Below are positions 2,855 to 57,250 of a stretch of 64,000 nt of DNA, piece by piece. Both the position numbers and the translations under genes were made by a program. How positions within the stretch are numbered: the first letter of the stretch is position 1; the number at the start of each line of letters is the position of its first letter. The notes beneath the pieces are model-generated. The model was not told where the DNA came from. It worked only from the letters and a program-made list of their open reading frames with translations, and ran no database searches. Source of the stretch: Deltaproteobacteria bacterium (GTDB lineage: Bacteria > Desulfobacterota > GWC2-55-46); the NCBI GenBank assembly GCA_016234935.1, contig JACRNL010000010.1:276589-340588 (forward strand). The letters are read 5' to 3'.

Positions 2855-3148
2855 ATGGTTGGATATTCAACGTTAATGCCGGAGCTGTACGTCTTCATAC
2901 TTGCCGCATTCGTAGGCTATATGGTCATTACGCGGGTCCCTCCGCTCCTGCACACGCCGCTCATGTCGGCCACCAACGCGATTTCGGCCATATCGGTCGT
3001 AGGCGCGATATTGGTCGCCGGCAGCGCCAACAGCCTGGTAACAAAGATACTCGGCACCATTGCCGTGGCCGCGGCCATGTCAAACGTGGTTGGCGGATTC
3101 ATCCTCACCGACCGCATGCTTAAGATGTTTAAGAAGGAGAAACGTTAA
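2855..3148 (+). CDS. pntAB: NAD(P) transhydrogenase subunit alpha part 2 (membrane dII helices)
   Basis: 97-aa hydrophobic protein between pntAA and pntB. GGAGG RBS. Its stop overlaps the pntB ATG. Confidence 0.85.
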   Translation: MVGYSTLMPELYVFILAAFVGYMVITRVPPLLHTPLMSATNAISAISVVGAILVAGSANSLVTKILGTIAVAAAMSNVVGGFILTDRMLKMFKKEKR

Positions 3149-5172
3149 TGCTGCAAACATACTTCGTGGATGTTTCATACCTTGTAGCATCGGTTCTTTT
3201 CGTATTGTGCCTCAAGTTCCTGAACTCGCCTGAGACCGCCAGAAAGGGCGTCCTGCTCGGTGAAATAGGAATGGCCCTTGCCATCATAGGCACGCTTATC
3301 AACCATGAGATCATCACCTACGAGTGGATCATCATAGGCCTCTTTATCGGTTCCATCATAGGCATAGCCATAGCCGTATGGACGCCGATGACGCACATGC
3401 CCCAGCGGACGGCGCTTTCACACGCATTCGGCGCCCTGGCGGTGACCCTCGTCGGAATAGCGGAATTTTACAAACACGGCGCGGACCTCGGCACCATCAA
3501 GACCGCCGCGATAGGCTTTGAGTGCCTTCTCGGCGCGTTGACATTCACCGGCTCCATGCAGGCCTTTTTCAAACTGCAGGAGTGGATGCGCGGCGCGCCA
3601 ATCACCTTCAAGGGCCAGAACGCCCTGAATATGGCCATCCTTGCGGGCATGATCGGGCTTCTCGGCTACATCATCTACGACCCGACCGCTTCATGGGCCT
3701 TTTACCTGATGGTCGCCCTGGGCTTTGCCTTCGGCGTCCTCCTCGTCCTGCCGATAGGCGCGGCGGACATGCCGGTCGTTATTTCTCTTTTAAACTCCTA
3801 CGCGGGACTTGCCGGCTCCGCGACCGGATTCGTGCTTTCAAACAACGTCCTCATCATCGCCGGCGCGCTTGACGGGGCATCCGGAGTCATCCTTTCCATC
3901 ATCATGTGCAAGGCCATGAACAGGTCGATGGCCAACGTCCTTTTCGGCGCATTCGGCTCAAGCACGGCGGGAGCGGCGGCGCCCAAAGTGACTATGCCGT
4001 CTCCAGCCGCCGCATCAGCCGCTCAAGCAGCCCCAACAGGCCCGGTCATAAAGAAACTTACGCCTGAGCAGGCCGGTGGCCTTTTCAAGAACAGGTCCAA
4101 GTCCGTCATAGTCGTGCCCGGCTACGGCATGGCCGCCGCGCAGGCCCAGCACGCCGTCAGGGACCTCGGCGACCAGTTAAAGACCCTCGGCATATCCGTC
4201 AAATACGCCATACACCCCGTAGCGGGCAGGATGCCCGGCCACATGAACGTCCTTCTGGCCGAGGCTAACGTCCCATACACCGACCTCTTTGATATGGAGG
4301 ACATAAACGAGGAGTTCGAGCATACCGACGTAGCCCTTGTTATCGGCGCCAACGACGTCACGAACCCGGCGGCAAGGAACAACGAGCAGTCACCGATATA
4401 CGGTATGCCGATACTGAACGTGGACAAAGCCAGGACCGTCATCGTCTGCAAGCGCTCCATGAGCCCTGGCTTTGCCGGAATAGACAACGAGCTGTATCTC
4501 ATGCCGCAGACCTACATGCTCTTTGGCGACGCCAAGGGTTCCATCGGCAAGCTCGTTGACTCGATAAAGAGCGGCAACGTTGAAGACGTCCCGGTTGAAG
4601 CGCCCGCGGCGGCTGCCGTGACCGGCGGCGGCCCCGCCGTAAAACAGCTCAGCGCCGAACAGGCCTGCGAACTTTTCTCGAAGAAGGCCAAGCGCGTCAT
4701 CATAGTGCCCGGCTACGGCATGGCCGCGGCGCAGGCACAGCATGCGGTCAGGGACCTCGGCGATCTGCTCAAATCAATGGGCGTCAAGGTGAAGTACGCC
4801 ATCCACCCTGTCGCCGGCAGGATGCCCGGCCACATGAACGTACTTCTGGCCGAGGCCAACGTCCCCTACACCGACCTCTTTGACATGGAGGACATAAACG
4901 ACGAGTTCGGAGAAGCCGACGTGGCGCTCGTTGTCGGGGCAAACGACGTCACCAACCCGGCGGCGAAAACCAACCCGCAATCGCCCATCTACGGCATGCC
5001 CATACTCGACGTTGAGCTTGCAAAGACCGTCATCGTGTGCAAACGCTCCATGAAGCCCGGTTTCGCAGGCATTGACAACGACCTGTATCTGATGCCGCAG
5101 ACCTACATGTACTTCGGCGACGCAAAGACATCCATCGGCAAACTTGTTGACGCGATGAAGGCGGCAAAGTAG
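3148..5172 (+). CDS. pntB: NAD(P) transhydrogenase subunit beta with a tandemly duplicated C-terminal NADP(H)-binding dIII domain
   Basis: 674 aa against ~460 expected. The block VIVVPGYGMAAAQAQHAVRDLGD…YLMPQTYM.FGDAK.SIGKLVD occurs twice (aa ~300-470 and ~500-674), at ~85% nt identity between the two copies. Confidence 0.85.
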   Translation: MLQTYFVDVSYLVASVLFVLCLKFLNSPETARKGVLLGEIGMALAIIGTLINHEIITYEWIIIGLFIGSIIGIAIAVWTPMTHMPQRTALSHAFGALAVTLVGIAEFYKHGADLGTIKTAAIGFECLLGALTFTGSMQAFFKLQEWMRGAPITFKGQNALNMAILAGMIGLLGYIIYDPTASWAFYLMVALGFAFGVLLVLPIGAADMPVVISLLNSYAGLAGSATGFVLSNNVLIIAGALDGASGVILSIIMCKAMNRSMANVLFGAFGSSTAGAAAPKVTMPSPAAASAAQAAPTGPVIKKLTPEQAGGLFKNRSKSVIVVPGYGMAAAQAQHAVRDLGDQLKTLGISVKYAIHPVAGRMPGHMNVLLAEANVPYTDLFDMEDINEEFEHTDVALVIGANDVTNPAARNNEQSPIYGMPILNVDKARTVIVCKRSMSPGFAGIDNELYLMPQTYMLFGDAKGSIGKLVDSIKSGNVEDVPVEAPAAAAVTGGGPAVKQLSAEQACELFSKKAKRVIIVPGYGMAAAQAQHAVRDLGDLLKSMGVKVKYAIHPVAGRMPGHMNVLLAEANVPYTDLFDMEDINDEFGEADVALVVGANDVTNPAAKTNPQSPIYGMPILDVELAKTVIVCKRSMKPGFAGIDNDLYLMPQTYMYFGDAKTSIGKLVDAMKAAK

Positions 5173-5196
5173 CAAATTACTCTCAGACGCTTGAAA

Positions 5197-5235
5197 AACG
5201 CCCTACCCGCGGCTTCGCGGATAGGGCGTTTTTTT
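5197..5235. terminator. bidirectional intrinsic terminator between pntB (+) and the rhodanese gene (-)
   Basis: AAAAACGCCCTACCCGCGGCTTCGCGGATAGGGCGTTTTTTT: a 13-bp stem with A-run and T-run flanks. Confidence 0.55.
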
Positions 5236-5585
5236 CATTTCCCTGCAAGGGGATAACCGGCATTGACCCAGGCGTCAAGCCCGCCAATAAGCGCGCTTAC
5301 GGCCCTGAACCTTTTACCAAGAAGTATCCGCGCCGCACGGGCGCTGGAGTGTTCATCCATTCAGGTGCAGTAAGCTGCGACCTCTTTGTCCGGATCAAGC
5401 TCGCCCGCCCTCTTCTCCAGCTCGTCAAGCGGTATCCGCACGGCATTGATTATTTTCACCCGGCTTGCGGCATAATCCGCAGGGCTTCTTACGTCAAGCA
5501 AAACCACATCTTCGCCTGCGTCAAGCCTTCTTTTCAGCTCTTTTCCGGTGATCCTTGGGGCCTTCATGGAAATCACTCCTTTCAT
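5235..5585 (-). CDS. single-domain rhodanese-like sulfurtransferase with an in-frame TGA (candidate selenocysteine) at 5361-5363; alternatively a nonsense-disrupted gene
   Basis: The 74-aa ORF ends …EVAAYCT-TGA. Translation continues in-frame as MDEHSSARAARILLGKRFRAVSALIGGLDAWVNAGYPLAGK to TGA at 5235-5237. Aligned to GlpE (…[20 protein letters not shown]…GGFEAW), the TGA falls exactly on the catalytic Cys column. A hairpin CAGCGCC-CGUGC-GGCGCGG starts ~14 nt downstream of the UGA. Confidence 0.45.
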
Positions 5586-5586
5586 G

Positions 5587-6183
5587 TCACGTCTGCGCTG
5601 TTTTAAAGTCGCGCAGGGTTGCCGTTAGCGCGCCATTTTCGCGCATCGTTTCAATCGCACGGATGGAATCGCCGGGGGAAATGTCCACGCCTTTGACGGC
5701 GTCGGTAAGAAGACAGACTTCAAAGCCCTCACGGATGGCGTCAATGACGGTTTCCTTGACGCAGTAATCCGTCGCCAACCCGCCGACGAATATGCGCGTC
5801 ACCCCTTGGGCGCGAAGCGCCTCGGCAAGTCCCCTGCCGCCCGCGTCCTTGCCCTGAAACCCTGAATAGCTGTCCTCGTCCTTTCCAGCGCCCTTGGTAA
5901 TGATGACGGTATCGTGCGGGAGTTTTAACGCAGGATGAAACTTGGCGCCGTGCGTGCCCTGCACGCAGTGAGGAGGCCATTTACCGCCCTGCTCCCTGAA
6001 ATGAACGGTTTTCGAAGGATGCCAATCCCGCGTGGCGTATATCGCATGGCCGGCCTTTTTAAAGACCGAAATATACACGTTAAGCGCCGCCGCGACCTCG
6101 CCGCCGTCAGTCACCGGCAGCGACCCGCCGGGACAAAAATCGTTTTGCACGTCCACAATGACGAGCGCGCTCACTGTCTTCAT
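5587..6183 (-). CDS. pncA: isochorismatase-family hydrolase, nicotinamidase/pyrazinamidase-like
   Basis: MKTVSALVIVDVQNDFCPGGSLPV… carries the Asp-Lys-Cys triad motifs of PncA. Start taken at the ATG with an AGAGG RBS (the ORF track extends 53 codons further). Adjacent to and co-directional with the rhodanese gene. Confidence 0.8.
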   Translation of the reverse strand: MKTVSALVIVDVQNDFCPGGSLPVTDGGEVAAALNVYISVFKKAGHAIYATRDWHPSKTVHFREQGGKWPPHCVQGTHGAKFHPALKLPHDTVIITKGAGKDEDSYSGFQGKDAGGRGLAEALRAQGVTRIFVGGLATDYCVKETVIDAIREGFEVCLLTDAVKGVDISPGDSIRAIETMRENGALTATLRDFKTAQT

Positions 6184-9213: not shown

Positions 9214-10191
9214 TCACGGCGCCCACAAATACATAAAACGCATACCCAGGCGCTCGGATAGAAGCGAGCCGTCTATGTTTACAAGGTTGACCTGCGGCGC
9301 GGCTCCGGCGTCAAGGGTTTCGGCCATCGAATAGATGTTGTTCTTGTAGGCGCGGGGCGAAGAATATGCTATTACCCTCGCCTCTTTTACGCCGGCGGCC
9401 TCCTTTGCAAGCTCTATGGCGTCGTCCATATACCCTATCCTGTCAATCAGCTTCAATTTAAGCGCCTGCTCGGCGGTGTATATCCTGCCGTCGGCTATCT
9501 TCTTCAGCTCAGCCCTGTCGAGCTTGGCAAGCTCCGGCCTGCCGCCTGTTATGACGGTCAGAAACCTCTCGTACATCTCGTCAATAATCGACTGCATGAT
9601 CCGCCGGTCTTCTTCGGTCATGGGCCTCAGCGGCGAGCCGATGTCTTTTTTATTGCCGGACTTGATGGTCTGGTCCGAGATGCCTATCTTATCAAGAAGC
9701 CCGCTCGCGTTGAGGTTGTAAGCTATGACGCCGATGGACCCGGTGACGGTGGTCGGATGCGCGACTATCTTATCCGAGGCCGCCGCTATGTAGTAGCCGC
9801 CGGACGCGGCTATGTCCATAAACTCGGCGATTACCGGCAGGTTCCTCTTCTTTTTGAAAAGCGCCATCTCGTGGTTCATTATGTCGCACACGGTCACGGC
9901 GCCGCCGGGGCTGTTAATCCTCAGGATAACCGCCTTGATGTCCGTATCCTTCGCGGCAAGGTCAAGCTCCTCTTTTAAAAGCGCCAGCCTTCCGGGCTTT
10001 TGCCCGAAAAGCCAGCGGCCCCGCCCGCCGTCCTCGGTGATTATGCCTGAGAGGTCTATGACGAGTATCTTATCCGCCCCCCTGCCGCCGAGGGTCTTCT
10101 CCTCGAGAGGCACCTCTTTGGGAAGGCTTATAAAAACGCATCCGGTGAGAAGCAGGCACAGAAGACAAAGAATGGAAGATAATCTTTTCAT
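9214..10191 (-). CDS. sppA: signal peptide peptidase SppA (S49 family, 36K type), lipoprotein
   Basis: Start chosen at MKRLSSILCLLCLLLTGC (lipobox) with an AGGAG RBS. S49 motifs are present (…VAHPTTVTGSIGV…). Confidence 0.85.
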   Translation of the reverse strand: MKRLSSILCLLCLLLTGCVFISLPKEVPLEEKTLGGRGADKILVIDLSGIITEDGGRGRWLFGQKPGRLALLKEELDLAAKDTDIKAVILRINSPGGAVTVCDIMNHEMALFKKKRNLPVIAEFMDIAASGGYYIAAASDKIVAHPTTVTGSIGVIAYNLNASGLLDKIGISDQTIKSGNKKDIGSPLRPMTEEDRRIMQSIIDEMYERFLTVITGGRPELAKLDRAELKKIADGRIYTAEQALKLKLIDRIGYMDDAIELAKEAAGVKEARVIAYSSPRAYKNNIYSMAETLDAGAAPQVNLVNIDGSLLSERLGMRFMYLWAP

Positions 10192-10225
10192 ACGGCTCCT
10201 TAGTTTACAGGCGGCGCCGGGCGCC

Positions 10226-11299
10226 CTACGCCTCGCTGATAATCCGCCGTATCCTCTCCTGCGTCTCGGAAACGGTCTCAACGCCGGTATTGAGTATGTG
10301 GCAGGTGGCGGAATCGAACAGCTGTCTGAAAAACGCCTTTTGCACCTCCGGCCTTCTAACGAGAAGATATGGGTTGTAAAATGATTCGTATTTGAACTCT
10401 CCAACTTCTTTGCCCGCGCCGGCGAGGACCTGATACCTGCCCTCCTCAAGTATCCTTACCGCCGCGTCCTTCGACAGCTTCACCTCGGCCAAAGAGTCTT
10501 TGTCGCGCCTTAGAAGTATGACGGCCTTTACGACGGCCTCGTCAACGAACTTATCCGGCCCGGCGATCCAATCAGGGTCGAGGATGGCCCGGCTGTTGGC
10601 AAAGGCGGCAAAATCTCCGCCGTCGACATTTTCGCATTTGCACCTTTTAAGGAGCCGCTCGATATCGGGAAAACTCTTTACCATGTCCGTCCTGAGATAA
10701 AACTTCCTCTCGGAAATATCGGCCATTGTCAGGCCTTTTTTGTATTGCAGAAAAAGCCAATCGTCCGAATGTATCTTGCCGTCCGGCATCTGCATGAGGC
10801 CCCAGGTGTGCGTGGATTTGCCCGTGCCGGTGGGGGCTATTATCACAACGCCCTTGCCGCCTACTATGGCGCAGGAGCCGTGTATGGAATGAACGTTGTG
10901 CTGAGTTTCAAGTATGTCCGCGGCCATGCCGAGCGCCCAGGACTTGCACTGGCCGTAATATTCGGTATTGATGAAGACAGCCGTCTTTGTCTCGTGGTTG
11001 TAATAGGCGAAAGGCTTTTGCCCGGCAATGCCGGTTACCGCGTAGATGACCCCATGCGGCAGGATGTTGTGGCTTCTTGGCCCCGCATACCAGTTCTCAA
11101 CCCAGAAATCATACAGATGGGCGCTGTTTGTGACGAGCCTTACGACCACGCCGTGGATGTTTGCGTTCCAGTGGTATGCCTCGAAATTTTCAGACAGCTT
11201 TGCCTCCGCGAGCCTCACAAGCTCATCACGCTCGGCAACGCTTATGTCCTTTTTCGAATCAACGCGGCCCCGGACTTCGGTAATGTAGTTGGAGAGCAT
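10226..11299 (-). CDS. P-loop kinase of the PEPCK/HprK superfamily, function unknown
   Basis: Walker A GGKGVVIIAPTGTGKSTHTWGL followed by a GKIHSDDWLFL kinase-2-like motif. Start at MLSNY with an AAGGA RBS. Confidence 0.5.
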   Translation of the reverse strand: MLSNYITEVRGRVDSKKDISVAERDELVRLAEAKLSENFEAYHWNANIHGVVVRLVTNSAHLYDFWVENWYAGPRSHNILPHGVIYAVTGIAGQKPFAYYNHETKTAVFINTEYYGQCKSWALGMAADILETQHNVHSIHGSCAIVGGKGVVIIAPTGTGKSTHTWGLMQMPDGKIHSDDWLFLQYKKGLTMADISERKFYLRTDMVKSFPDIERLLKRCKCENVDGGDFAAFANSRAILDPDWIAGPDKFVDEAVVKAVILLRRDKDSLAEVKLSKDAAVRILEEGRYQVLAGAGKEVGEFKYESFYNPYLLVRRPEVQKAFFRQLFDSATCHILNTGVETVSETQERIRRIISEA

Positions 11300-11334
11300 A
11301 GGCATCCTTTCTGTTTTTCCATCAGGCCGCTCAA

Positions 11335-11480
11335 CGCAGCAAATGGGGCGCTTGAGGCAGCCTCTTAAGGGCAGGCTGCTCAAAAAGCCCCAGATGCAAG
11401 GAGTCGAGGAGTGAGGCGTGCTTTTTGGGCACGCCGCAGTGACGAATAACGAAGACAACGCCGCAGATGGGGCGCTTGAG
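11335..11480 (+). mobile_element. MITE-like ~125-bp TIR element, copy A, with an extra solo right-end fragment at its left
   Basis: AGGCTGCTCAAAAAGCCCC…GGCGTGCtttttggGCACGCC…GATGGGGCGCTTGAGGCAGCCT. It abuts the TAG stop of the RHH gene. Confidence 0.6.
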
Positions 11481-20800: not shown

Positions 20801-20956
20801 CGCATTTGAACGCCATTACTCCCCTGTGAAGGGGCTGAGCCCCCTCACAGGGGGTCTACCCCTGATAAACCTTTCCATAAACATGGCAACGCATCTTTCC
20901 TTACGGCATGAGGCGCATCTTCACGCCGTAAGGGAACAGTTTCATGCCATCTCAAT

Positions 20957-21190
20957 TTATTCCAGTATCACGTTGGTGAGCGTCTTTTTGACGTGATTTA
21001 TCTTCTGTATCTTCGAGATGACTACGTCGCCGAGGACCTTGAAGTTCGACGCGGCCACGAGGGCGATGAGATCGTACGGGCCTGTGACCACCCTCGCTTC
21101 CTTCACGCCGGCCACCTTCAACAGCTTCTCAAGGACATCCCTTGATTTCGCGTGCTCACATTCTATGAGCACATAGGCTTCAACTGACAT
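20957..21190 (-). CDS. stand-alone Lrp/AsnC C-terminal (RAM) domain protein
   Basis: 77 aa (MSVEAYVLIECEHAKSRDVLEKLLKVAGVKEARVVTGPYDLIALV…) with a RAM-domain fold signature. Confidence 0.55.
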   Translation of the reverse strand: MSVEAYVLIECEHAKSRDVLEKLLKVAGVKEARVVTGPYDLIALVAASNFKVLGDVVISKIQKINHVKKTLTNVILE

Positions 21191-21215
21191 GGTTCCTCCT
21201 TGCTATCCGTAAAAC

Positions 21216-21297
21216 GTAGTGCGAGGCTTCAGCCTCGCTGTTTTTTTTGCGGTTCACTTGCCTGATTACAACAGGCGAGGCTGAAGCCTCGCACTAC
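21216..21297. repeat. inverted pair of GTAGTGCGAGGCTTCAGCCTCGC hairpin units (repeat family 3); left unit followed by T8
   Basis: ACGTAGTGCGAGGCTTCAGCCTCGCTGTTTTTTTT … GCGAGGCTGAAGCCTCGCACTACGT. Related units at ~53300-53395 and ~56696-56725. Confidence 0.5.
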
Positions 21298-21310
21298 GTA
21301 AAACAGAACG

Positions 21311-21457
21311 CGGCAGATGACGCGCTTGAGGCACAGGCTGCTCAAAAAGCCCCAGCTACTATGCGACGAGGAGCGAAGAACGAGGCGTAGTGTGTCCTAC
21401 GCCGCAGTGATGAGCGACGAAGGCAACGACGTAGATGGGGCTTTTTCAGCAGCCTGC
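21311..21457 (+). mobile_element. MITE-like TIR element, copy C, preceded by a partial right-end fragment
   Basis: …CAGGCTGCTCAAAAAGCCCCAG…GGCGTAGtgtgtcCTACGCC…GATGGGGCTTTTTCAGCAGCCTGCTCA. The napC-like TGA stop lies in the last 3 nt. Confidence 0.6.
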
Positions 21458-24697: not shown

Positions 24698-25222
24698 ATG
24701 ATAAAAACATACCTGCCGTTTACCGCGCTCTTCCTGCTGCTGCTCTGCGTGCCCGTTCATGCCGAGCGAGGCGCCATAGGCGCATCCATAAGAGCCGTAG
24801 ATGAATTCTATAACGAAACACAAAATTTGACAAAGGATTTAGCGGACAGTCCAGCGGTAAAAGAGATGCGCGCCGCGTCACTTGAACAAAAAGACGCGGC
24901 CGTTAAGAATCTTGAAAACCTTAACCGCGTTGACAGGCCGGGTAAAAAGCGCTTTAAACAGGCCTACGGCATAGCCGCCTCCTATATGGACGCGCGAATC
25001 GAGGCCGTAAAAGCCCTTCCTCAAGCCTCCCCTGAAGACAAGGCGCGCATCGGCGGCATCGCAAAAACCCTGCTTGCCCTGAAAGCGGAAAAGCTCAACG
25101 CAATTAGCGAGACCGAAAAATTTGAACGAACAGATGAAAAGAAAATAAAACCCGTGCCAAGCATAGACCGCTCCCCCTACGAAAACAGCCCTGAAGGGGA
25201 TAAAGGGATATGGGAGAGGTGA
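24698..25222 (+). CDS. hypothetical secreted alpha-helical protein
   Basis: Signal peptide MIKTYLPFTALFLLLLCVPVHA. No recognisable domain. Confidence 0.45.
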   Translation: MIKTYLPFTALFLLLLCVPVHAERGAIGASIRAVDEFYNETQNLTKDLADSPAVKEMRAASLEQKDAAVKNLENLNRVDRPGKKRFKQAYGIAASYMDARIEAVKALPQASPEDKARIGGIAKTLLALKAEKLNAISETEKFERTDEKKIKPVPSIDRSPYENSPEGDKGIWER

Positions 25223-25289
25223 ACGGGGATTGAATTTGTTTCAGCGCGGGCGAGGCCGGGGAGCATAGGGACTTTTTGATTAACGGGGT

Positions 25290-25325
25290 TCCGGCGCGGA
25301 GACAGACCGGAACAAAAAGAGTTCG
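25290..25325 (-). terminator. intrinsic terminator downstream of the REC-PilZ gene
   Basis: Minus strand reads GGTTCCGGTCTGTCTCCGCGCCGGAACC with a T-run. Confidence 0.45.
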
Positions 25326-25350
25326 GGAGTTCTCCCCGCCGCTTTAAATC

Positions 25351-51075: not shown

Positions 51076-52284
51076 TCAGCAGACAGGGTGCTCTCCCCTT
51101 GAAAGCTCGCCTGTGAACGCGCCGAGGCCGGACATGAACTCTTCAATTATCAATGCAACGGCTTTGCCGGCGGTCTTTTTGTTAAAACGCCTTCCCTGTA
51201 TTATCTTTACATATATCCTCTTTGGCCTGTCAATGGGCGAGCCTATCTGGCTTAAAAGCCACACATAAACTTCCCTTATGCCGTCTACGCGCTCATAGAG
51301 CTCCGCCGCCATGCGGTGAGAAAGGACTGTGTAAATCTTGCCCACGTGGCTGACCGGGTTTTTTCCTGCGGCCGCCTCCGTGCCCATGGGCCTGTTAAGG
51401 GAGATGACGCCGTTCACCCTGTTTCCCCTGCCGACCTCGCCGGAATCAGCGTCCTCGGCGGACGTGCCTGTCAGCGTCAGATAGACCCCGCTTGCGCCGA
51501 TTCCTTTTTTGTCAAGGGCATTGAAATTAACCGTGACCTTTTTGAAAGGCGTCTCATTAAGGAACACGGCAAGCGCGGATTTTACGGCGGCCTTTCTTTG
51601 AAAATATTCCTTCTCATTCCTTACAAGAGACGCGTAAAGAGGGCAGGCGACGGTTATGTCAAGGCCCTTGCCTGTCCGTATGCCCATCACCTTCACGTCC
51701 TCCCCGCTTTCAGGGAAGCGGAGCTTGAAGGCCGGGGAGTTCAAAAACCTTTCCGTTTCAAAGACCGTCTTTTCAGTTGTGGTAAGCGGGGCATAACCCA
51801 CAGACGCCGACGTGTCGTTCGCGCCAAGGAGTCTGCCTTTCCTGTTGAATATCGCCGTAAGCTCCGCGGAGCCGGGCGCAAGGGCGATGCGCGTTCTTAA
51901 ACTTTTATCTATGTCAACGTGCCGGAGATTTTCCTTGAACCAGCCGCCAACGGCGTCGTTGACTATCTCCTCAACGGGTATTTTTACCCTGCCGGCCTTG
52001 AAAACAGCCCTGTCGCCGATGGTGAACTCCATTGGCCTTACCACCCTGCCGCCGCCGAAACCTTTTTTCACGGATCCGGCTGATAAAAGCCCCTTGTCTA
52101 TGTTGTGGTGCAGGACGCGCCCGAACCTCTTTATGTATTCCCTGCTCAGGGCAACGGAAATCCTGTCCGTCACCGCGTCACAGATATAGTCCGGGTGGCC
52201 GACGCCCTTTCTCTCGACTATCTCGACCGCGCAGTCGCTGATTGGAAGGTCATTTACAACTTCTATCGTCAGCCTTTGCGCCAT
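51076..52284 (-). CDS. archaeal-type S-adenosylmethionine synthetase (MAT, PF01941)
   Basis: ERKGVGHPDYICDAV…ANDTSASVGYAPLTTTEKTVFETERFLNS…YLTLTGTSAEDADSGEVGRGNRVNGVISLNRPMGTEAAAGKNPVSHVGKIY aligns block-for-block with M. jannaschii MAT as I recall it. Start at MAQRL with an AGAAGG RBS contributed by the MITE E flank. Confidence 0.85.
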   Translation of the reverse strand: MAQRLTIEVVNDLPISDCAVEIVERKGVGHPDYICDAVTDRISVALSREYIKRFGRVLHHNIDKGLLSAGSVKKGFGGGRVVRPMEFTIGDRAVFKAGRVKIPVEEIVNDAVGGWFKENLRHVDIDKSLRTRIALAPGSAELTAIFNRKGRLLGANDTSASVGYAPLTTTEKTVFETERFLNSPAFKLRFPESGEDVKVMGIRTGKGLDITVACPLYASLVRNEKEYFQRKAAVKSALAVFLNETPFKKVTVNFNALDKKGIGASGVYLTLTGTSAEDADSGEVGRGNRVNGVISLNRPMGTEAAAGKNPVSHVGKIYTVLSHRMAAELYERVDGIREVYVWLLSQIGSPIDRPKRIYVKIIQGRRFNKKTAGKAVALIIEEFMSGLGAFTGELSRGEHPVC

Positions 52285-52298
52285 TAGCCGCCTTCTTA

Positions 52299-52433
52299 GC
52301 AGACTGCTGAAAAAGCCCCATCTACCGCGTTGTCTTCGTCGTTCGTCACTGCGGCGCACCCAAAAGTGCGCCTCACTCCTCACTCCTCGACGCCTTGTGT
52401 CTGGGGCTTTTTGAGCAGCCTGCCGGTTTCAGC
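52299..52433 (-). mobile_element. MITE-like TIR element, copy E (inverted orientation)
   Basis: The reverse complement matches the consensus, with hairpin GGCGCACttttggGTGCGCC. Lies between the MAT start and the queH 3' end. Confidence 0.6.
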
Positions 52434-56504: not shown

Positions 56505-56818
56505 CCTCGCCCCCTGCCGCCCCCACCCTGCCCTCCCCCGTAAAGGGGGAGGATAAATGGAAGTGACCATCTCCCGCCGCGCAACTGCCGGAAATATCAT
56601 TAATATTTCAAACATCAGATACATAACACAAAACAGGCGAATTTGCAATTTGCAAATTCGCCTGCGCAAGGTTTTCAAGACGGCTGTCAGCAAAACTCGC
56701 AAGGCGAGGCTGAAGCCTCGCACTACATTCATGGAATTGTGTCATTCCCCTTTTAAAAAAAAGCGGGGACAATTACCGCGTGTGAACATCTTCATAATTC
56801 CCTGAAGGGAATGCCGCT

Positions 56819-57025
56819 TTATTTGTTATTCGTTGTTTTTTTAATTTTATCTAATTTTTTAACTTCTCTTTTTTCAATCCCTTCATTAATCATTTTTCTT
56901 ACCAAGTAGCCAACACTTCTGTCCTCTGACTCAGCATGATATTTAAGTTTTTTATAAACTTCAGGTTCAACACGTATGCAAACTTGAGCGCTCTTTTTAT
57001 CGGTCATCGTCAAACTATAATTCAT
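56819..57025 (-). CDS. CopG/Arc/MetJ-type ribbon-helix-helix protein in an AT-rich (~30% GC) island
   Basis: MNYSLTMTDKKSAQVCIRVEPEVYKKLKYHAESEDRSVGYLVRKMINEGI… is RHH-like. GAGGAG RBS. Coding GC is far below the genome background. Confidence 0.55.
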   Translation of the reverse strand: MNYSLTMTDKKSAQVCIRVEPEVYKKLKYHAESEDRSVGYLVRKMINEGIEKREVKKLDKIKKTTNNK

Positions 57026-57054
57026 ATTTTGATGCTCCTCAATCAAAAAAATGC

Positions 57055-57083
57055 TTGACATTGCGTTGCAATGCAATTATAAT
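57055..57083 (+). promoter_or_regulatory. perfect sigma70 consensus promoter TTGACA-N17-TATAAT, divergent from the RHH gene; spacer contains TTGCAA/ATTGCAAT palindromes
   Basis: Sequence ttgacattgcgttgcaatgcaattataat. No convincing ORF downstream (the 36-codon MRINPETL… ORF lacks an RBS). Would read antisense into the 3' end of the sigma54-regulator gene. Confidence 0.5.
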
Positions 57084-57250
57084 GTCTACATAACACAACG
57101 AAAGATAAAAACACAGGCCGTGTCAATGCGGATTAATCCCGAAACCCTTCAGGTTGTCGAATTTACTGCGCAGAAGGTAAAACGCGCCGTATCCGCCATT
57201 GCAGGGATTATAAATAGACAAAAGGATTTTAAATGATATGGATTTAATTG

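Follow-up and report, generated by a model that had tools for sequence, protein, structure and literature searches.

Several selenocysteine (Sec)-containing forms of rhodanese have been described in bacteria: form 1 with the motif UxxS, forms 2 and 4 with UxxG (Sargasso Sea, GOS) and TsoB with UxxxxU (PMC13188914), besides a UxU variant from Olavius symbionts (PMC1976440). A further form, CxU, was predicted by the bSECISearch study, and this family is still 'predicted', without an experimentally established function or selenium incorporation (PMC13188914, PMC9312934). The gene analysed here, located in a 64-kb stretch of DNA (the window, meaning the whole stretch that was analysed), encodes a candidate of the latter type. 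Like the other Sec rhodaneses, it combines a rhodanese domain with a predicted Sec in the active-site region and putative bacterial SECIS decoding, whereas its Sec-flanking motif and its subfamily set it apart from forms 1, 2 and 4 and from TsoB. Compared by motif description, the Olavius UxU variant comes closest to the C-x-U of the window gene in motif spacing. A first-pass annotation, made from the sequence alone, had pointed to rhodanese selenoproteins from marine metagenomes; these indeed exist (PMC1088965, PMC2398784), but they represent other forms than the CxU form of the window gene.

The best NCBIfam match of the read-through product, ahead by about 50 bits, was NF041203 (rhodanese_LYCAU, 'rhodanese-related (seleno)protein'), which aligned over profile positions 17-125 of 126 and scored 97.5 bits with Sec replaced by Cys and 90.6 bits with Sec masked as X. 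Because 97.5 bits lies below the curated cutoff of 115, the gene is not a formal equivalog member; judged by profile scores, it is a divergent or sister lineage of this predicted selenoprotein family. Distant Sec-type relatives (see below) scored 116.5 (L072, above the cutoff), 104.9 (L004), 102.9 (L005) and 75-85 bits (the others). The window protein shares with rhodanese_LYCAU a single rhodanese domain and, where the central strand ends, an aromatic-Cys-x-Sec motif (AYCTU here, LYCAU there). Unlike NF041203-type relatives, it has Met in place of the usual Pro after Sec, and it differs from several Sec relatives in having neither a signal peptide or other leader nor a DedA fusion.

An in-frame TGA in a small rhodanese gene

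The gene and its flanks comprise the following features (positions are those of the window):

5235-5585, minus strand: full extent of the predicted rhodanese selenoprotein gene if translation begins at the first ATG and ends at the true stop; 116 codons, one of them for Sec
5576-5582, minus strand: Shine-Dalgarno sequence AAAGGAG, read from the sequence, with a spacing of 8 nt to the second ATG at 5565-5567
5367-5369, minus strand: TGC codon for Cys73, first residue of the C-x-U motif, invariant in 26 of 26 family members in the alignment
5361-5363, minus strand: in-frame TGA, predicted to be read as Sec (residue 75 of the 116-aa form); Cys in 70 homologues, TGA in nine distant and three close relatives
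5327-5348, minus strand: putative bacterial SECIS hairpin with a 5-bp G+C upper stem, a bulged A and a 3-bp lower stem
5235-5237, minus strand: predicted true stop codon TGA, its position kept, as TAA, in a close variant
5194-5233, minus strand: intrinsic terminator that immediately follows the true stop and separates the convergent pntB and rhodanese genes, an 18-bp stem followed by a U run
5587-6183, minus strand: nicotinamidase/isochorismatase-family gene, the upstream neighbour (Pfam PF00857; NCBI MBI5888561.1, 'nicotinamidase')

The minus-strand ORF at 5361-5585 runs for 74 codons from its ATG and ends in DKEVAAYCT followed by the TGA at 5361-5363, past which the frame continues for 41 further codons (MDEHSSARAARILLGKRFRAVSALIGGLDAWVNAGYPLAGK) until a second TGA at 5235-5237. 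The read-through product matched the Pfam Rhodanese domain (PF00581) over residues 15-108 (E 2.7e-14, 53.8 bits, gathering threshold 22.2). Profile coverage by the 74-aa fragment is limited to positions 3-68 of 102, or two thirds, so that a full rhodanese domain needs read-through; the shorter piece lacks the final third of the fold with its GGxxAW strand and helix. The first-pass annotation had described the same ORF, read-through frame, second stop and 116-aa single-domain rhodanese, and every one of its coordinates proved accurate when compared to the ORF anatomy and the Pfam match. NCBI annotates 5361-5585 only, as the 74-aa 'rhodanese-like domain-containing protein' MBI5888560.1, which is very probably a product truncated at the Sec codon. 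Because the Shine-Dalgarno sequence sits 8 nt before the second ATG, the real product probably comprises 110 aa, and we regard this ATG, also picked by one independent gene caller (giving the 68-aa protein P0001), as the more probable start on sequence grounds.

With 1 nt between its stop codon and the first rhodanese ATG, the nicotinamidase gene is the probable operon partner of the rhodanese gene. The pair is conserved in the close-relative loci L001-L003; among the distant Sec relatives, synteny revealed no conserved neighbour, and the nicotinamidase pairing is limited to close relatives. On the other side, the terminator at 5194-5233 had a stability of -32.1 kcal/mol (z = -6.07), reached by 0 of 200 shuffled sequences. 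A and U runs stand on either side of this hairpin, which is probably a bidirectional terminator for both pntB and the rhodanese gene. The convergent PntB ORF (NAD(P) transhydrogenase beta; 3148-5172, plus strand, 674 aa) carries the C-terminal NADP(H)-binding domain III twice in tandem, with 78% identity between the copies over 180 aa. A single copy is the norm for PntB, and the second one may reflect a true duplication or a fault of assembly.

Elsewhere in the window, the S-adenosylmethionine synthetase (51076-52383, minus strand) is of the archaeal type (PF01941, E 6e-150) and not the usual bacterial MetK, in a metagenome-assembled genome (MAG) labelled Deltaproteobacteria. Two minus-strand ORFs within 9214-11458 overlap by 224 nt as listed, namely a peptidase S49/NfeD-like ORF (9214-10449) and a 410-aa ORF (10226-11458) with no Pfam match and no recognisable domain; the downstream ORF of the pair probably starts later than listed. 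No credible ORF, tRNA or Rfam match was found in the intergenic gaps at 20801-21457, 24711-25350 and 56733-57250 (520-660 bp).

A tRNA-Sec was not found in the 64-kb window by ARAGORN or Rfam, and the window had no match to any Rfam RNA family either; to our knowledge, Rfam is not expected to hold coding-region SECIS elements of this kind. Pfam annotation of the 51 window ORFs revealed no selA, selB or selD, the only AIRS-domain protein being PurL, and no other selenoprotein. Apart from the rhodanese gene, the intergenic gaps of the window contained no credible pair of ORFs joined by a TGA. Because the source MAG is labelled Deltaproteobacteria, reportedly the most selenoprotein-rich bacterial group (PMC1794560), the prior for Sec machinery in this genome is raised.

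Cys and TGA forms in related loci

Relatives were collected by a pattern scan with one genome per species, which yielded 80 related loci that were then translated. The comparison comprised 83 loci, 70 with C-x-C and 13 with C-x-TGA. Whereas the C-x-C loci come mostly from Steroidobacteraceae and other Gamma- and Betaproteobacteria, plus Nitrospirota, the TGA loci include one identical to the window (L003), a close variant (L001/L002) and nine distant relatives. The latter are from Terriglobales, other Acidobacteriota including Thermoanaerobaculia, three Anaerolineae (Chloroflexota) and one unclassified MAG.

Among full-length homologues, the nearest ones (P0003-P0007, at 41-44% identity) have REIVAYCTCPNEASAAQVAKLL opposite KEVAAYCT-UGA-MDEHSSARAARILL of the window gene without a gap, and their motif region AYCTCPNEASAA pairs, again ungapped, with AYCT-UGA-MDEHSSARAA. 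Because these homologues align ungapped, the UGA column is the second Cys of the invariant family C-x-C motif: where the window gene has Y-C-T-TGA, its closest Cys homologues have Y-C-x-C, and all 70 homologues of the TGY type carry Cys in this column. Together with the TGA found there in the nine distant relatives, this supports the Cys/Sec replacement that had been proposed from the window sequence. Across the whole set of Cys-type Y-C-x-C-P-N-E-A-S rhodaneses (P0003-P0007 and L006-L083), identity to the window protein is 36-46%, the motif is gapless, and conservation extends to the two motif positions, the Glu of the loop and the GGLDAW..AGY tail. These proteins differ from the window gene in having Cys (TGY) in the Sec column and no fixed-register SECIS hairpin (0 of 70).

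In the nine distant relatives, the stop in the motif column is always TGA (TAA or TAG, 0 of 9), and 39-48 more in-frame codons lead through S-A-x-x-A...GG(L/F)xAW..AG[YLF] to a normal stop. The window locus itself, with its TGA, is present in three independently assembled public read sets, of which SRR12113407 carries an identical copy, and SRR22388311 and SRR22387972 carry the variant with 89% amino acid identity. In this variant (L001), the final stop lies at the same codon. For the 39 codons after the TGA, Nei-Gojobori dN/dS ranged from 0.07 to 0.31 in six pairs of Sec forms, similar to or below the values for the 60 codons before the TGA. The tail downstream of the TGA is under purifying selection.

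Several Sec-type relatives are extended at the N-terminus. Three C-x-U rhodaneses of Acidobacteriota (Thermoanaerobaculia and others; L022:2401-3339, L039:964-1896 and L081:2398-3324) are fused to an N-terminal DedA/VTT membrane domain (PF09335) and would represent membrane-anchored selenoproteins of roughly 310 aa. Four others, from Chloroflexota and the unclassified MAG (L016:1190-1762, L068:2791-3264, L072:2770-3321 and L074:80-586), have N-terminal hydrophobic leaders, some with a lipobox-like Cys, which suggests exported forms. Because of these DedA/VTT fusions and export leaders, the C-x-(C/U) rhodanese family appears to occupy several cellular locations.

A hairpin behind the UGA and the reading of the codon

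The first-pass annotation had also pointed to a stem-loop about 14 nt 3' of the UGA. Such a hairpin is present at 5327-5348 (UCC-A-GCGCC [CGUGC] GGCGC-GGA); its first base lies 12-14 nt behind the UGA, and the apical loop CGUGC (5335-5339) begins at a distance of 21 nt from the codon. In the published bSECIS model, the apical loop has 3-9 nt with a G within its first two positions, as a rule followed by G or U, the upper stem has 4 bp or more, the distance from the UGA is 16-37 nt, and the MFE is -7.5 kcal/mol or lower (PMC13188914, Fig. 2 legend). The window hairpin, with a local MFE of -12.5 kcal/mol, lies within all four limits. Compared to shuffled sequence, its stability was not exceptional (z 0 to -1.3), and hairpins within the bSECIS limits followed 7.6% of ordinary codons in the window as background. 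The hairpin is therefore informative only by comparison of homologues, and its stability, not significant against shuffles, was discarded as evidence in favour of a comparison of Sec and Cys forms.

In this comparison, hairpins within the bSECIS criteria were found in 12 of 13 Sec-form loci versus 13 of 70 Cys-form loci (Fisher p = 5.6e-6 when calculated from non-redundant counts). When the register was fixed and a stem of at least 4 bp with an N-G-[U/G]-N-N loop was required, the hairpin was present in 13/13 Sec forms versus 0/70 Cys forms. Lax criteria alone matched 26% (contiguous stems) or 19% (strict criteria) of Cys forms, and the bSECIS criteria thus discriminate Sec from Cys forms only if register and G[G/U] loop are required. 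In the 11 distinct Sec forms, 92.7% of stem cells were paired, and hairpin sequence and offset were the same in the relative L072. Covariation support is thin: one stem pair is compensatory (C-G to G-C in L039 and G-U in L081), and three of the five stem pairs never vary among Sec forms. Part of the stem conservation is at the protein level, as the S-A-R-A-A peptide, itself conserved, is encoded there.

The Cys homologues, the nine TGA relatives, the purifying selection on the tail, the Sec-specific hairpin and the NF041203 CxU model are all in line with the Sec-containing rhodanese, with its Cys/Sec pair and SECIS-like hairpin, that had been put forward at first pass. We consider it highly likely from these sequence comparisons that the in-frame UGA encodes selenocysteine in a Cys-x-Sec motif of a small rhodanese-family enzyme. 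During translation, the UGA at 5361-5363 would not be read as a stop. The GC hairpin with the CGUGC loop 21 nt downstream would act as a bacterial SECIS element and recruit SelB-GTP-Sec-tRNA(Sec), selenocysteine would be inserted, and translation would cover a further 41 codons before ending at the real stop (5235-5237), which the strong terminator closely follows. The predicted product, about 110 aa and about 12 kDa in size, is a cytoplasmic selenoprotein with a single rhodanese-fold domain and the motif Tyr-Cys-Thr-Sec, in which Cys73 and Sec75 would lie where the central beta-strand ends and the next helix begins. While frame, Cys/Sec pairing, recurrence of the TGA, selection on the tail and specificity of the hairpin were observed directly, we infer the SelB/SECIS mechanism, the chemistry and the residue inserted at the UGA.

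The comparative data show that the tail is translated and are silent on the inserted residue, and would also fit a UGA that is recoded without Sec, either by near-cognate Trp or Cys or by Cys on tRNA(Sec), resulting in a full-length protein without selenium. We regard such recoding as unlikely, as the column is strictly Cys in the TGY forms (70/70), a classic Cys/Sec pair, loop sequence and spacing of the hairpin fit the SelB-type SECIS model, NF041203 is curated as a selenoprotein family, and TGA serves other ORFs of the window as a normal stop. A global reassignment of TGA was rejected because TGA is the ordinary stop of 20 of the 51 window ORFs, including the rhodanese gene itself.

Alternatively, the UGA could be a functional stop that yields a half-rhodanese of 68-74 aa, perhaps together with a separate 41-aa peptide initiated at the ATG that directly follows the TGA in the window. 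This ATG is ACG in the close variant L001 and CCG, GAA or CGG, and thus never a start codon, in the distant Sec forms, which leaves the tail without a separate start codon, and no Shine-Dalgarno sequence precedes the ATG in the window. In addition, the 74-aa piece would be left without the last third of the fold, and the terminator comes only after the second stop: a simple terminator scan found no terminator-like site just after the first TGA, its only in-gene site (5328-5340) being the GC hairpin region about 20 nt downstream. Functional termination at the UGA is therefore very unlikely.

The first-pass annotation had named a nonsense mutation and a sequencing error as alternatives. One base change turns TGY into TGA, and a recent mutation of this kind in a Cys-type rhodanese, with a decaying tail, would agree with the 74-aa product listed by NCBI. 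Such a pseudogene is extremely improbable and effectively refuted by conservation, since nine distant lineages and a variant with 13% amino acid divergence have the same TGA, neither the frame nor the stop position is disrupted, downstream dN/dS is 0.07-0.31, TAA or TAG occurs in no lineage, and the hairpin is specific to the TGA forms. Although the window comes from a metagenome-assembled genome, a single-base sequencing or assembly error in a real TGC or TGT codon has next to no probability given the TGA in three separately assembled read sets and nine unrelated MAGs.

Active-site placement and probable chemistry

With UGA read as Sec, the next question is which of the two motif residues corresponds to the canonical rhodanese nucleophile. 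The first-pass annotation had placed the TGA at the catalytic Cys by alignment to E. coli GlpE. Alignment of the family profile to canonical single-Cys rhodaneses including GlpE by hhalign supported this register, with the Sec column on the canonical Cys (Cys65 of GlpE) and a normal loop length. In contrast, MAFFT placed the upstream Cys73 on the canonical Cys, with a 2-residue insertion before the helix. AlphaFold models fit Sec75 or Cys73 as the canonical position alike: the Cys homologue P0005 (pLDDT 90.7) shows strand(IVAY)-C-T-C-helix(15 residues), and the canonical rhodanese P0019 (pLDDT 91.2) strand(IVAH)-C-R-S-G-helix(12 residues), so that the helix of P0005 extends three residues further on its N-terminal side. 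In Foldseek, the P0005 model matched Alr3790 and other rhodanese structures with a TM of about 0.7 (0.74) and an rmsd of about 2 Å. Whichever placement applies, both motif residues would, according to these models, sit in the active-site connection of a normal rhodanese fold. Because Cys73 and Sec75 are two residues apart, a selenenylsulfide between them would be allowed.

The window protein is predicted to share the rhodanese fold with E. coli GlpE and PspE and other canonical single-domain thiosulfate sulfurtransferases (PDB 1GMX), but identity is only about 25%. The GlpE and PspE models scored far below their cutoffs (NF001195 for GlpE, 29 bits versus 102). The canonical signature of these proteins, a single catalytic Cys with a 5-residue basic/Gly-rich loop (C-x-x-G-x-R/S-S), is replaced by U-M-D-E-H-S-S with an extra Cys two residues upstream of Sec (position -2). 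Whereas GlpE and PspE have a G-x-R/S anion cradle, the loop after Sec is acidic, M-D-E-H here and P-N-E-A in most relatives, with an invariant family Glu and no Arg or Lys. The label 'sulfurtransferase', under which the gene had first been proposed, is doubtful for this reason. Because of the acidic loop without Arg or Lys and the low GlpE/PspE scores, a redox or chalcogen-transfer cycle via a selenenylsulfide or Se-persulfide, and not classical thiosulfate:cyanide sulfurtransfer, is most likely the activity, as far as sequence features can indicate.

More tentatively, and with considerable doubt, the C-x-(C/U) rhodaneses may not be sulfurtransferases at all but a distinct redox-active branch, in which Sec or Cys would N-cap the extended helix beside a resolving Cys and the invariant Glu and run through a selenenylsulfide cycle. 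Such a motif would resemble a thioredoxin-type CxxU centre grafted on a rhodanese scaffold. If this were true, the DedA/VTT fusions and export signals of relatives would point to chalcogen or metalloid handling at the membrane.

The window gene very probably belongs to an already described kind of selenoprotein, the CxU rhodanese, of which the public record truncates this copy. The result thus has annotation value, MBI5888560.1 ending at the predicted Sec codon. As NF041203 misses the gene by 18 bits, such relatives are probably recognised too rarely in MAGs. With its 70 Cys forms and 11 distinct Sec forms, the latter all with the hairpin in one register, the comparison set offers a clear case from nature in which a switch from Cys to Sec coincides with the gain of a SECIS inside the coding sequence. 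The acidic C-x-U loop suggests a chemistry unlike that of textbook rhodaneses, which would make the family a reasonable, though not urgent, target for biochemistry.
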